DNA of 64,000 bases from an uncultured Dehalococcoidia bacterium (lineage in GTDB: Bacteria > Chloroflexota > Dehalococcoidia > Lucifugimonadales > UBA3495): positions 3,750,523-3,814,522 of the forward strand of contig OY282456.1 in assembly GCA_958296225.1 (NCBI GenBank), read 5' to 3'. Numbering within the stretch: position 1 is the first letter of the stretch; every line of letters begins with the position of its first letter. Under the pieces are notes generated by a model, which was not told the DNA's origin, did no database searches, and saw only the letters and a program-made list of their open reading frames with translations. This document shows positions 5,833 through 61,097 of this stretch, piece by piece. The position numbers and the translations under genes are program-made.

Positions 5833-6474
5833 CTACCGCCGCCGCACATGGCCGGTGATTTCGCCGGCCAAGGCGGCAATGCTGCGGCGGCGCACGGTGA
5901 TAACCCGGCGGTCGCCCTTGCCGTCAAAATGCGCCGAAACCCGGTGGTCCAGGGGAGTGCTTTGCCAGATGACGATGATTTCAGCCCAATTGCGGTCGGG
6001 ACGATAGTAGCGGTCATCCCGCGCCACCTTGCCGTCAACAAAGCGCCACTCTACGCACGGCGGGGATTTTTCCCTGATTTCACGCTCTTTCCTTTCCGTG
6101 CCGCCAACGACAAGGATGCGACTGCGGCCAGCCGCCGCCAGCGCCGCGCTCATTTCGTCCAGAGAACGGGCGCTGGGCTTGCCACCGCAAATATCACACT
6201 CCGATTGCTTCACTACCAGCAGCGGCGGCAAGTCGCCATAGCCATCCGCATCCTTATTAGCCGCCTGCCGGCAGTCTCCATTGTTGCAGTGCCAGAGAAA
6301 GGCCGCGGTTAGAACCTCACGGGCGAGGCAGCTTTTGGAACCGGCGATGTTGGCGCGGTGGGGACTGCGTTGGATTACCCCCCATTCAAAGAGTGCGTTG
6401 CGGGCGTTTGGGTATTCATTATAGGCAATGCCAAAGTCCATTAGCATATTGTCAATTGGAATGTCGGTCATCAA
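5833..6474 (-). CDS. Hypothetical Cys-rich protein
   Basis: The 213-aa ORF lies upstream of the SDR gene on the same strand. Motifs include CNNGDC and CDICGG. The C-terminal RILVVGG...IIVIWQSTPLDHRV only loosely resembles DUF2325-type domains. I recognise no confident family. Confidence 0.5.
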   Translation of the reverse strand: MMTDIPIDNMLMDFGIAYNEYPNARNALFEWGVIQRSPHRANIAGSKSCLAREVLTAAFLWHCNNGDCRQAANKDADGYGDLPPLLVVKQSECDICGGKPSARSLDEMSAALAAAGRSRILVVGGTERKEREIREKSPPCVEWRFVDGKVARDDRYYRPDRNWAEIIVIWQSTPLDHRVSAHFDGKGDRRVITVRRRSIAALAGEITGHVRRR

Positions 6475-15188: not shown

Positions 15189-15323
15189 GAAACAATCAGC
15201 TCCGGGTAGCGTCCCATTTCAGGTGGTCGGGGTTTTGCAAAGCTATTAAAGCCCTCCTGCTCCGGCGTCCCCAAAACCCGCCGCCCGCACTTTGCAACGG
15301 CCCGGCCCACTGACAACCCCCCT

Positions 15324-15352
15324 TTGACAACCGCGAACATAAGACCTATACT
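15324..15352 (+). promoter_or_regulatory. Near-consensus sigma70-type promoter driving the candidate ncRNA (copy 1)
   Basis: TTGACA (15324-15329) is followed by 17 nt and TATACT (15347-15352). The same boxes and the same spacer length are conserved at copy 2 (58742-58770, minus strand). Confidence 0.65.
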
Positions 15353-15358
15353 GTACCC

Positions 15359-15733
15359 CGTCACGTGAATCTCAGTCCAGCCAGAGGTCAACCGGTCGTC
15401 AACGGCCAGTCAGCACTAAAATCGCATACCGGCGTCGTGGAGACCCCTCGTCCAATGCTTACGCGAGAACGGTCTAACCGGCCAACAGCGACTGCCACCG
15501 CGCTGCGTGGCCGCGCCCTTAAAGCGCGGTTCACGAACCATCGGAGCAAAACTTTGCGTAAAACCCCCGGCCGTGGGGCTGACAATGACCGGTAACCTCT
15601 GGCTCGCCCACCGCATCCCGCTAACCGCCCGAACCCCGACCACCTGAACCAGCAAGGAGCATCGCCAATGAACCCAGCCCACCACCTCAGAGAAATAACC
15701 AAACCACCTGAAACGAAACGCTGCCTCAGCTCC
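15359..15733 (+). ncRNA. Candidate structured non-coding RNA of unknown class, copy 1
   Basis: There is no credible CDS here. The element has its own promoter and a long-range closing helix (15380-15397 with 15587-15603) plus nested hairpins. A near-identical inverted copy lies at 58373-58735, and one helix carries a compensatory change between copies. Confidence 0.6.
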
Positions 15734-15784
15734 GGCGCCGGTTCGAAAAGCCCCGGCGCGAGTCACTGCCGCGCCGCCGGCGGA

Positions 15785-58372: not shown

Positions 58373-58735
58373 GGAGCTGTTGGGCAGCGTTCCGTTTCAG
58401 GTGGTTTGGTTATTTCTCTGAGATGGTGGGCTGGGTTCATTGGCAATGCTCCTTGCTGGTTCAGGCGGTTGGCGGGATGGGGTGGGCGGGCCAGAGGTTA
58501 CCGGTCATTGTCAGCCCCACGGCCGGGGGATTTACGCAAAGTTTTGCTCCGATGGTTCGTGAACTGCGCTTTTAAGGGCGCAGCCACGCAGCGCGGTGGC
58601 AGTCGCTGTTGGCCGGTTAGACCGTACTCGCGTAAGCATTGGACGAGGGGTCTCCACGACGCCGGTATGCGATTTTAGTGCTGACTGGCCGTTGACGACC
58701 GGTTGACCTCTGGCTGGACTGAGATTCACGTGATA
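58373..58735 (-). ncRNA. Candidate structured non-coding RNA of unknown class, copy 2 (inverted relative to copy 1)
   Basis: The reverse complement aligns with 15359-15733. The 242-nt core differs at only five positions, two of which convert a C-G pair to U-A in the same hairpin (58564-58583). Confidence 0.6.
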
Positions 58736-58741
58736 GATTGC

Positions 58742-58770
58742 AGTATAGTACCGATGTTCGCGGTTGTCAA
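58742..58770 (-). promoter_or_regulatory. Near-consensus promoter of ncRNA copy 2
   Basis: On the minus strand, TTGACA (58770-58765) is followed by 17 nt and TATACT (58747-58742). The hexamers are identical to copy 1. Confidence 0.65.
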
Positions 58771-58846
58771 AGGGGGGTTGTCAGTGGGCCGGCGCAAAGT
58801 GCGGGCGGCGGGTTTTGGGGACGCCAGAGTGCTACCCCTCTCCCAA

Positions 58847-58930
58847 CCCTCTCCCACAAGGGGAGAGGGCTACCTGCGCTGGGCGGAGCGCAACTGCCCT
58901 TTCCCAACCCTCTCGCTTTGCGGGAGAGGG
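58847..58930. repeat. Two REP-like CCCTCTC..GAGAGGG hairpins inserted in the intergenic block
   Basis: The first, CCCTCTCCC-ACAAG-GGGAGAGGG (58847-58869), is perfect. The second, CCCTCTCGC-TTT-GCGGGAGAGGG (58908-58930), is imperfect. Both are absent from the homologous block next to copy 1. Confidence 0.7.
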
Positions 58931-59054
58931 CTTTAATGACTTTGCAAGCTGCGCGGTGGGACGGCTCTTATCGCAACCTCTATCCCTGACGGCAAGAGCG
59001 GCATCCCTGACTTTGCAAAGCCCCGACCGCCGGCAACGGAACGCTACCGAGCTA

Positions 59055-59082
59055 TTGACACCGGTCGCGTTGCTAGTATAGA
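59055..59082 (+). promoter_or_regulatory. Possible promoter of the peptide-type ABC operon
   Basis: TTGACA (59055-59060) is followed by 16 nt and TATAGA. The surrounding ctttgcaaa..ccccgacc..acgctacc..gagct..ttgaca block is shared with the DUF1800 promoter region. The ATG lies ~200 nt downstream. Confidence 0.35.
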
Positions 59083-59282
59083 TTCTGTCAAGCTTTACGA
59101 ATGACGGTTCGTGACCGGTTTGGGCTGATGTGCGCGACATTCAGCATAAAATCGACCGCGTGGTTTCATAACGAACGGCATCTGCCGGGATCGTTATTGA
59201 CTAGAGCTTTCCCGGATTCATCGGCAGCTGGCAGCCTGGCCCGCGGTCGCCGATAGGAAAATTAGAGTCTGGAGGTCTGGTA

Positions 59283-61097
59283 ATGAATCGTTACGGAATC
59301 AGAGTTCCCCTGGCGTTGACACTGGCGCCTTTGCTATTGCTCCTGGCATTTGCCGTATCATGCGGAGGGGCCGAGGCGCCGGCCGGGACCGCGCCAACTG
59401 GTGAGCAGTCCGGCTCTGCCCCGGCCGCAACCGGAATACCGGGGGCAGCCCAGCCCACTGCGGCTCCTGAGTCCACAGATGAGCCCTCGCAGATGGCCGC
59501 CGGCGAGAAAGTGCTGCCGGTGCAAAAAATCATCCTGGGGCTAATCACCCCGATTGACGACACCGTAGTGCCCTGGCTGGGCGGTGTTGACTTTGTGTAC
59601 CAGCACAGCCCCTTTATGGAGTATCTGGTGCAGCTGGACTCGCATACCAGCGAATGGAAGCCCATGCTGGCAAAAAGCTGGGAGATGAACGCGACCGGGG
59701 ACATCTGGACCTTTGAGCTGGAGCAGGGCGTCCAGTTCCACCGTGGGTTTGGCGAGTTCACCGCAGCGGACGTTGAGCACAGCTTCAAGGTCAACTGCCA
59801 GCAGGGTACCCGCGCCAGTTACAAGGGCGGCATCTGTAACGTTGAGCGCGTGGAGATCATTGACCCCTACAACATCAGGGTTCACATGGTCAACCCCTCT
59901 GCGGAGTACCTGTTTTATGCCGCCGAGTCCGCGGGCAACATGATATCCAGCAAGGCCCAGTGCGACCAGGCCGGCGGGTTTGATGACGCTGCCAACCAGG
60001 CGAGCGAGGGTTGCACCAACGCGTACTACGAAAGCCTGGCCGGTACCGGCCCGTACCAGTATGACGGCCGGGTTCCCGAAGTCCAGGTTGATTACTCGCT
60101 GGCTTTCCCGGACGGCCACTGGCGCATCGACCCCGACTACCCGGAAATGCGGAACACCTGGGTGCTGGAAGAGTCCACCCGTCTGGCCCAGTTCCGCGCC
60201 GGCGAAACCCACATGACCGAGGTTAACCGGGACTTGGGCGACCGGCTGGTTGAGGAAGGTTTCAAAATCATCCAAAGCACCGGCCCGGCCCAGCAGACCG
60301 CCTTCCGCTTTGGCGGTATGTTCTACAACGACCCGGAAAACTATGACCCCAACTTCCCCGTAACGGCGCCGGGCGAAATCGGCATTAAGGTGCGCAAGGC
60401 GCTGAACAAAGCCGTGGACCGGGAAACCTTCAAAGCGGAACTCTACAAAGGCCGGGTGTGGGACTCCAAGGTGCACTCCTTCCACGATGAGCTGACACCG
60501 TGGAACCCCCAGTGGGACGCGGACTGGGAGGAAGAATACGGCTACGACCTGGAGGCGGCCAAGCAGCTTCTGGTTGAGGCGGGCTACCCCGAAGGATTCG
60601 AGATTACCGTTCCCATGTACCCCTTCCCCGGCGCGCCGGAACTGCCCCAGATAGCACAATTCATGCAACTGGCCTGGGCCGAGATTGGGGTGACCCTGAA
60701 TCTCAGGGACGAGGACCGGGCGGCTGTGGTGGCCCGGCGTCGGCAAAAGGCTAACCACGAAACGGCCCTGGCGACCACGCCTTCCTTCAAGGCCCAGGAA
60801 GCCCAGATGATGCTGTTCAACACCCATAAGGATGACGGCGGTGTGGTCTGGATGTACGAGACCAAGGAGCTGCGGGACCTGTACCACGTTCTGCAGACCA
60901 CCATGGACCCTGCTGAACGCGCCCGGGTCCTGATACAGATGGGGGACATCAAGTTCTACGAGCACGAGTGGATACCCCTGTTCTGGGTGCCTATTGAGAC
61001 GATTGTGGACCCCGACATCATCTGCGCCTGGCCTTTCCCAGGTTGGGAGGGCGGCGATCTGGGCAGCAACGAGGAAATCAAGGCGCCCCCCTGCTGA
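59283..61097 (+). CDS. ABC transporter substrate-binding lipoprotein, family 5 (DppA/OppA-like)
   Basis: The 604-aa product has a signal peptide with an AVSCGG lipobox and a Pro/Ala/Thr linker. Its size and its position upstream of DppB/DppC-like permeases fit family 5. Confidence 0.85.
   Translation: MNRYGIRVPLALTLAPLLLLLAFAVSCGGAEAPAGTAPTGEQSGSAPAATGIPGAAQPTAAPESTDEPSQMAAGEKVLPVQKIILGLITPIDDTVVPWLGGVDFVYQHSPFMEYLVQLDSHTSEWKPMLAKSWEMNATGDIWTFELEQGVQFHRGFGEFTAADVEHSFKVNCQQGTRASYKGGICNVERVEIIDPYNIRVHMVNPSAEYLFYAAESAGNMISSKAQCDQAGGFDDAANQASEGCTNAYYESLAGTGPYQYDGRVPEVQVDYSLAFPDGHWRIDPDYPEMRNTWVLEESTRLAQFRAGETHMTEVNRDLGDRLVEEGFKIIQSTGPAQQTAFRFGGMFYNDPENYDPNFPVTAPGEIGIKVRKALNKAVDRETFKAELYKGRVWDSKVHSFHDELTPWNPQWDADWEEEYGYDLEAAKQLLVEAGYPEGFEITVPMYPFPGAPELPQIAQFMQLAWAEIGVTLNLRDEDRAAVVARRRQKANHETALATTPSFKAQEAQMMLFNTHKDDGGVVWMYETKELRDLYHVLQTTMDPAERARVLIQMGDIKFYEHEWIPLFWVPIETIVDPDIICAWPFPGWEGGDLGSNEEIKAPPC

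Follow-up and report, generated by a model that had tools for sequence, protein, structure and literature searches.

RCd22, a non-coding RNA (ncRNA) encoded upstream of the HEPN protein AbiF, neutralises that protein in cis as well as in trans (PMC12373285). In this type III-like toxin-antitoxin (TA) or abortive infection (Abi) system, whose protein belongs to the Abi_2 family, a structured ncRNA that has a promoter of its own sits immediately 5′ of the HEPN-fold gene, on the same strand. ToxIN, CptIN and TenpIN also place an RNA gene upstream of a small protein gene, a layout that should give an excess of RNA; type III antitoxins are tandem direct repeats, processed by the toxin, and a terminator precedes the toxin gene. 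ToxN-type toxins are not known to have a HEPN fold. Large leader RNAs and riboswitches are also found 5′ of coding genes, as multi-helix junctions closed by a P1 helix, with pseudoknots and invariant junction nucleotides. Lastly, bacterial miniature inverted-repeat transposable elements (MITEs), e.g. those of Coxiella (PMC5896051), MITEAba12 (PMC6382973) and the Neisseria Correia elements, are short, multicopy, non-autonomous and transposase-less, are bounded by terminal inverted repeats (TIRs) and target-site duplications (TSDs), and can supply promoters or RNA-coding sequence. Here we describe a 64,000-nt stretch of DNA (the window) from an uncultured Dehalococcoidia bacterium, contig OY282456.1, in which two copies of a MITE-like element carry a promoter and a structured RNA of ~225 nt. 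Homologues of this RNA are found upstream of a HEPN-like gene in other Dehalococcoidia, and together they form a conserved, apparently undescribed RNA family.

A conserved RNA in the window and its relatives

A preliminary description of the window had noted that the reverse complement of 58494-58735 matches 15362-15603. Formal alignment with MAFFT and a repeat finder bears this out: an inverted repeat pairs ~15201-15734 on the forward strand with 59057-58374 on the reverse strand (repeat finder pairs I1, I4, I5 and I9). We refer to the copy at 15196-15734 as copy 1 and to that at 59057-58374 as copy 2; their features are collected in Table 1. The RNA cores show the five differences originally counted, which consist of four substitutions (A/T, C/T, G/A and A/T) and an indel of 1 nt within the loop of a hairpin. 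A 34-mer of core sequence has exactly two occurrences in the window, against 0.00 expected by chance, and a profile search of the window with nhmmer finds exactly two copies of the RNA.

The −35 (TTGACA) and −10 (TATACT) hexamers are identical in the two copies, as first described, and are separated by spacers of the same length (17 nt). Four of the 17 spacer positions have changed, and five changes lie within 27 nt 3′ of the −10 hexamer. The indel 3′ of the core, originally given as 13 nt, is 15 nt in the alignment (CGAACCCCGACCACC); these nucleotides are missing from the spacer of copy 2 and present in copy 1 and in L018, the closest relative locus, which comes from another assembly. Substitutions between the copies affect 4/222 core and 17/224 flanking positions (Fisher p = 0.006), and the three pairwise comparisons of core against flanks among copy 1, copy 2 and L018 give p-values of 0.006, 7e-7 and 2e-5.

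Further copies in relatives had been called for, and homologues were found in other Dehalococcoidia, where the fold is kept with covariation. A back-translated scan of genomes with the core's open frame recovered L005, a locus of a Dehalococcoidia metagenome-assembled genome (OZ241987.1), with the order TTGACA-17-CATAAT, a diverged RNA, a Shine-Dalgarno (SD) sequence and a 188-aa open reading frame (ORF) starting MNPSHHL; the corresponding stub in the window reads MNPAHHL. The contigs of members of this protein family then yielded L006, L009, L010 and L018. In all, the RNA lies upstream of the HEPN-like gene in L005, L006, L009, L010, L011, L018 and L019, and in L019 the linkage is kept at just 39% protein identity. 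A conserved 22-mer led to five near-identical paralogous copies in the metagenome MKWU01, one with the gene (L011) and four orphans with intact promoters in unrelated contexts (L013-L016), one of which (L016) is upstream of a ligA-like ORF, as judged from its N-terminal sequence only. Promoter-like hexamers occur at the same distance from the RNA in all homologues, and are identical in copy 1, copy 2 and L018. Three more assemblies (P0173, P0174 and P0175) have window-type cores beside truncated genes; in P0173, on a 3.97-Mb contig, a gene call runs through the core into the HEPN-like ORF. In L007 the leader has been displaced by an insertion sequence (IS). The RNA is absent from L001-L004, the relatives' loci of the neighbouring DUF1800 gene, whose protein puts the source organism within the Dehalococcoidia. 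A six-frame chimeric 'protein' of the core had no match in a set of 5.8 billion proteins, P0173 surfacing later through its HEPN-like gene, and when the core's open frame was back-translated and used as a pattern on viral contigs and on JGI metagenome contigs, no match emerged. An exact 20-mer scan of GTDB representative genomes was likewise negative.

The core is, on comparative sequence evidence, a real structured RNA under structural constraint. Its conserved, covarying fold comprises helices P1-P9 (ten helices, as P5 is in two parts) and a pseudoknot. The helices were derived from a comparison of lineages, in a hand-made alignment of 12 sequences that were each checked as real subsequences; L019 stands outside this alignment and contributes its own sequence and fold. 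Of the 708 helix cells, 97.0% pair, against 30-42% when the partners are slid by 1-3 columns. Covariation testing, as the preliminary description had advised, shows that pairs covary above shuffled controls: two-sided changes occur in seven pairs, a number reached in 7 of 500 shuffles, and the covariation score of 0.122 compares with 0.061 for the shuffled alignments (0/500 reach it). Several helices are invariant across the alignment and thus uninformative in this respect. Also invariant are the unpaired stretches AAAUCGCA, CUGACAACGA and UGCGUAA. The transcribed strand is fixed by many G.U pairs in P2, P4 and P5, which are possible on this strand only and would be A.C mismatches on the other.

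The divergent locus L019 retains ACGGCC, GUCAG, AAAUCGCA, GGCCGU and CUGACAACGA. In P1 it has another helix, 12 bp long and perfect, that has covaried fully (GGCAGGAUUUCG/CGAAAUCCUGCC in place of GCCAGAGGUG/CACCUCUGGC), and its P2 is UUCG/CGAA. Core-only folds are more stable than shuffles, with z = -3.69 for copy 2 (0/200 shuffles as stable) and z = -3.74 for L019. Only the P7 tip and the junction J2/1 tolerate large insertions, such as the repetitive extragenic palindromic (REP) elements of L009 and L010.

The hairpin P7 holds the compensatory change that the preliminary description had pointed out, and this change is real: the helix is CCGCGC/GCGCGG in copy 1 and CUGCGC/GCGCAG in copy 2, so that its second pair is C-G in one and U-A in the other. 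This pair is the most variable and the most covarying of the molecule, with all four Watson-Crick types in the family (alignment columns 162/177: AU 6, GC 2, UA 2, CG 1, unpaired 1). The P0173 gene call reads ..RGCALKRGS.. over P7, and because its Cys (UGY) and Gly (GGN) codons fix CUGCGC/GCGCGG, the pair there is U.G. The series thus runs from U-A (copy 2, L018) through U.G (P0173) to C-G (copy 1), with the U.G pair as the expected wobble intermediate. The proposal that selection on RNA structure lies behind the change is strengthened by the family covariation and by this intermediate, although a single compensatory event between two copies is not significant alone.

Some candidate features did not hold up. 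A second pseudoknot, of the H type, would join the P6 loop to J6/7; it convinces in the window (GCCAC/GUGGC) and MKWU01 (CCUCC/GGAGG) types alone, is unconvincing in L005, L006, L009 and L010, and was dropped from the tested structure. In L005, L006 and L009-L016, the 5′ strand of P1 with J1/2 (AGAGGUGAU) is like an extended SD sequence and the 3′ strand (AUCACCUCU) is like the 3′ tail of 16S rRNA; this mimicry is missing in L019 and weak in the window type, and is probably a coincidence. The core is not a coding sequence either, given a 1-nt indel between the copies, non-triplet indels among the homologues and the frame change needed in P0173.

Several smaller observations concern the surroundings of the RNA. 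A short palindrome, TCACGTGA, lies downstream of the −10 hexamer at 58725-58732 (reverse strand) and 15362-15369 (forward strand), and also in L015/L016; the same site holds ACTCGAGT in L005, L006, L011, L013 and L014, and the 6-nt GTGCAC in L009/L010. These lineage-variable palindromes of 6-8 nt look like an operator or an RNA self-pairing site. Most members have a second AAGGAG, with no start codon, 20-70 nt past P1. REP elements of the types GTCATTCCCGCGGAAGCGGGAATC and CGCTCATCCTGAGC.. are inserted within the RNA in L009 and L010. Lastly, neighbours of the RNA repeatedly include genes of nucleic-acid repair or recombination, namely Pnkp/Hen1 (L018), RuvA/RuvC-YebC (L006, and L011 as called from ORF sequence only), topA-dprA (L009, L010, and L014, again called from ORF sequence only) and the ligA-like ORF of L016, a proximity that may be coincidental.

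Table 1. Features of the two element copies in the window, and helices of the RNA
Feature	Position	Strand	Sequence or remark
Copy 1, whole element	15196-15734	+	Same element as copy 2
Copy 1, TSDs	15196-15204 and 15726-15734	+	TCAGCTCCG; 9/9 identical
Copy 1, TIRs	15205-15227 and 15703-15725	+	
Copy 1, promoter	15324-15352	+	
Copy 1, RNA core	15380-15603	+	
Copy 1, P7 hairpin	15511-15529	+	Pair 2 is C15512-G15528
Copy 1, SD	15654-15659	+	
Copy 1, 7-codon remnant	15668-15688	+	
Copy 2, 5′-side TSD	59049-59057	-	CAATAGCTC; 8/9 match to CAACAGCTC, just outside the arms
Copy 2, left TIR	59026-59048	-	GGTAGCGTTCCGTTGCCGGCGGT; partly degenerate; homologous to copy 1 left arm (15205-15227) and L018 arms
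Copy 2, two REP-like hairpins	58836-58931	-	GCCCTCTCCC...GGGAGAGGG; inserted 5′ of the promoter; absent from copy 1
Copy 2, sigma-70-type promoter	58742-58770	-	TTGACA-17-TATACT; 11/12 matches
Copy 2, structured RNA core	58490-58714	-	P1 GCCAGAGGU to ACCUCUGGC; 225 nt; nhmmer E = 6e-42
Copy 2, P7 hairpin	58564-58583	-	CUGCGC-CCUUAAAA-GCGCAG; pair 2 is U58582-A58565
Copy 2, A/C-rich, G/T-poor spacer	58441-58489	-	A12 C24 G9 T4; SD AAGGAG at 58449-58454
Copy 2, HEPN-like gene remnant	58420-58440	-	ATG + 6 codons (MNPAHHL); tblastn
Copy 2, right TIR	58383-58405	-	ACCACCTGAAACGGAACGCTGCC; same arm in L018 at 6350-6372
Copy 2, 3′-side TSD	58374-58382	-	CAACAGCTC
P1			GCCAGAGGU(G)/(C)ACCUCUGGC
P2			GGUCGU/ACGACC; AUGACC in window type
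P3			GUCAG/CUGAC
P4			GCCUC/GGGGC; CCGG/CCGG instead in window type
P5			GACC/GGUC + inner helix CCGG/CCGG, CUCG/CGAG or CCGA/UCGG
P6			CAGCG/CGCUG
P7			CAGCGCA/UGCGCUG; hairpin flagged by the preliminary description
P8			CCCC/GGGG
P9			GCA/UGC; short helix
Pseudoknot			Invariant bulge ACGGCC with P8 loop GGCCGU

Two insertions of a MITE-like element

The two copies are insertions of a single MITE-like, non-autonomous DNA transposon whose TIRs are 23 bp and whose TSDs are 9 bp long. The arms are found at both ends with the consensus GGCAGCGTTCCGTTTCAGGTGGT, those of copy 1 agreeing at 19 of 23 positions. The duplications are perfect in copy 1 and in L018 (GAAAACCGA), and match at 8 of 9 positions in copy 2 (CAAYAGCTC). 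The units measure 521, 666 and 870 bp (0.52-0.67 kb in the window), and there are two copies in 64 kb besides those in relatives. ORFs inside the units have no family matches and include no transposase gene, and no IS carrying these TIRs was present among the loci examined. The same arms bound MITEs of ~110-150 nt, complete in L001 and L005, and in L011 a right arm stands alone, 14 nt 5′ of the −35 hexamer. The intergenic flanks are not alignable with those of relatives, and no empty insertion site was recovered.

L018 holds the fuller form of the element. Its 870-bp unit consists of the left arm, one REP-like hairpin (at the position matching the pair in copy 2), the promoter, the RNA, the SD, 80 codons of the gene and an inner small MITE that runs from left arm to right arm, all inside the perfect 9-bp duplication. 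Copies 1 and 2 correspond to this unit minus a deletion that extends from gene codon 8 to 11 nt before the right arm. Since they have the deletion junction in common (CTCA joined to GAGAAATAACC), they are two transpositions of one deleted progenitor, and therefore much of their identity is due to recent common descent. The preliminary description had set selection on RNA structure against recent copying of a neutral repeat; the copies are not independent RNA genes kept alike by selection alone but two insertions of one element, and their near-identity mainly reflects recent transposition. Copy 2 and L018 share the U-A pair of P7 and an identical promoter spacer and discriminator, which makes copy 1 the derived copy.

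As its cargo the element has a near-consensus sigma-70 promoter, the ~225-nt multi-helix RNA, an A/C-rich spacer, an SD and the first seven codons of the gene. The element has evidently captured the RNA as the 5′ leader of a HEPN-like gene, of which these seven codons survive in the window. The stub is homologous to the N-termini MNP[ASTE]HHL of P0121-P0175, and the homology stops at the deletion junction. No HEPN-like gene was found in the 64-kb window by tblastn beyond the two 7-codon stubs. Both copies are orphans, each facing the 3′ end of a convergently oriented gene. We considered the small ORF 3′ of the core (83 aa in copy 1, 33 aa in copy 2) as a gene and rejected it, as just its first seven codons are homologous, both between the copies and to the HEPN-like family. 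A promoter-like TTGACA-18-TAGATT at 59055-59084 on the forward strand abuts the left end of the copy 2 element and faces a solute-binding-protein gene at 59283.

The HEPN-like protein and a proposed role of the RNA

The gene that is linked to the RNA in relatives is intact and encodes ~188 aa. The protein family is small (57 clusters) and unannotated, with no match in Pfam, NCBIfam or PADLOC, including none to HEPN or Abi_2. An AlphaFold2 model (predicted local distance difference test score, pLDDT, 87.5) folds the N-terminal 125 residues into a HEPN-like four-helix bundle, and the modelled bundle has the up-and-down four-helix topology of HEPN domains. In Foldseek searches the best PDB matches are all HEPN proteins, among them 2hsb (template modelling score, TM, of 0.81 normalised by the target; root-mean-square deviation 2.1 Å), 1o3u, 1ufb, 2q00 and toxins of HEPN-MNT systems. 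The residues that never vary in the family include R35, H39, R57, R106, R107, R110, H168 and C172. Between the RNA and the start codon lies a spacer of 49-137 nt that is A/C-rich, poor in G and T, and unstructured, often with an extra AAGGAG that has no start codon. Downstream of the gene there is often one for a luciferase-like monooxygenase or a GMC oxidoreductase.

We tentatively propose, by analogy with AbiF and RCd22, that the RNA serves the HEPN-fold protein as its cognate partner or regulator, acting in cis where the locus is intact and in trans where the copy is an orphan. At intact loci it would act as the leader of the HEPN-like gene, and the G-poor spacer could permit Rho-type attenuation, keeping the RNA in excess of the protein. 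Orphan copies such as copy 2 are predicted to be still transcribed from their own promoter, and could provide in trans an extra protein-binding, antitoxin-like or decoy RNA. Such a role would explain the conservation of core and hexamers in an element that otherwise drifts and whose cis gene decays. Of the readings considered, this one best explains conserved promoters and cores without a cis gene, the persistence of cores beside decaying genes, and the multiple orphans. A bolder version, in which the RNA would form a new class of protein-neutralising (antitoxin or decoy) RNAs for an unrecognised HEPN-like family of Dehalococcoidia, spread by MITEs as free-standing 'orphan antitoxin' genes, seems doubtful to us.

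A number of observations weigh against the partner or regulator proposal. The alignment was built by hand with the fold in mind, and represents ~4-5 independent lineages, five of its sequences being near-identical. The Foldseek E-values are weak (0.014-1), and the canonical HEPN motif Rx4-6H is not evident among the invariant residues of the family, where RSASH (R35-H39, helix 2) is an Rx3H. No terminator or defined expression platform was found between the RNA and the gene. Finally, 9 of the 17 flank changes form a single cluster around the −10 hexamer of copy 1; leaving it out, the contrast between the copies falls to roughly 1.8% in the core against 4.8% in the flanks. The flanks were originally described as drifting, and they are indeed more diverged, but most of that signal is this one cluster.

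Three other explanations deserve to be weighed. The RNA could be a metabolite- or ion-sensing leader of the riboswitch type that controls the HEPN-like gene and the oxidoreductase behind it, with the copies in the window as non-functional relics carried by the MITE. A conserved, covarying fold 5′ of genes, with a complex multi-way junction, a pseudoknot and invariant unpaired stretches, is what an aptamer would look like; moreover, whenever the two occur together the RNA is 5′ of the gene on the same strand with no terminator between, and the monooxygenase or oxidoreductase that often follows the gene also speaks for this reading. However, no expression platform overlaps P1, inspection shows neither a terminator nor a helix that would sequester the SD, and the start codon is as far off as the unstructured spacer is long. 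Furthermore, near-identical orphans precede unrelated sequence or no gene, the copies in the window retain hexamers and core with nothing to regulate, and window-type cores last while the cis gene decays. On balance we find a riboswitch unlikely.

A neutral passenger is also improbable, in our judgement. Here a recent transposition of the MITE would be the only reason for the likeness of the copies, with sampling noise or local mutational heterogeneity giving an appearance of constraint. The TSDs and the shared deletion junction do point to one progenitor, the cores are only four substitutions apart, the cis gene has been destroyed and the cluster in copy 1 holds more than half of the flank changes. 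Against this, divergence is lower in the core than in the flanks in each of the three pairwise comparisons among copy 1, copy 2 and L018, two of the four core substitutions make up the compensatory pair, whose position covaries throughout the family, the U.G intermediate is present in the relative P0173, and the promoter hexamers are intact in copy 1, copy 2 and L018. A stand-alone, trans-acting small RNA whose C/A-rich 3′ tail pairs with G-rich ribosome-binding sites, the HEPN-like neighbour being incidental, would fit a strong promoter of its own, multiple copies and an unstructured C-rich tail, but is very unlikely given that the tail is the least conserved part (15-nt indel, 8-15% divergence), that the linkage of RNA and gene is kept down to 39% protein identity and that there is no terminator.

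The window contains other repeats as well. Positions 1-850 hold three tandem units of ~224 nt that share 96% identity; within them lie 24-nt sub-repeats, of which CCGGCGGCCCCCGCAGGTACGGCC is one example. Three paralogous GMC-oxidoreductase-like genes at 8.7-10.2, 16.1-17.6 and 39.4-40.9 kb, two direct and one inverted, share 71-84% DNA identity and have DUF1800/DUF1501 genes nearby; duplicated DUF1800-DUF1501-NHL blocks also occur in relatives.

Comparison with known RNAs, toxin systems and MITEs

Very few ncRNAs are known in the phylum Chloroflexota, to which this work adds, in the class Dehalococcoidia, an apparently uncatalogued, pseudoknotted RNA of 225-300 nt. At gathering thresholds, Rfam 15 has no match in the whole window or in L005, L006, L009 and L010, and at E <= 10 the matches are at chance level only; the models covered include abiF, HEARO, OLE, ROOL, GOLLD, raiA, riboswitches, 6S, RNase P and transfer-messenger RNA (tmRNA). 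ARAGORN finds no tRNA or tmRNA, and literature searches found no description of the RNA.

Although the arrangement of promoter, RNA and HEPN-fold gene is that of abiF, the RNA matches the abiF motif in neither sequence nor structure and is much larger (225-300 nt, with a pseudoknot). The protein, unlike AbiF, matches neither the Abi_2 Pfam family nor PADLOC, and the host belongs to the Chloroflexota, whereas hosts of AbiF are Bacillota or Pseudomonadota. The type III TA antitoxins also differ, as the RNA described here is a single complex fold in which neither tandem repeats nor an intrinsic terminator were found. Since the defining features of the abiF/AbiF and type III TA families were looked for and are lacking, the RNA belongs to neither. 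The likeness to large leader RNAs and riboswitches is one of architecture and position; in contrast to these, its paralogues are near-identical, promoter included, and orphans have no gene downstream.

These results tie the RNA to a family of proteins with a HEPN-like fold that has had no annotation. Should the RNA bind or neutralise its protein, the two would make up a new TA-like RNA-protein system and be an example of transposons that spread trans-acting RNA genes; the orphan antitoxin reading, if true, would provide a route for a non-autonomous transposon to distribute a structured, functional RNA within a genome. Should the RNA prove to be a riboswitch, it would represent a new class, and one whose known members form a tractable set.

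The element itself compares most directly with the bacterial MITEs, sharing their small size, lack of a transposase, TIRs, TSDs and multiple copies. It differs from them in that its RNA does not derive from the repeats of the MITE: the basic MITE of its own family is just ~110-150 nt, and the element has captured a pre-existing promoter, a leader of ~225 nt and the start of a gene. It is a clear case of a MITE that captures a host promoter and a structured leader, and copies them around the genome.

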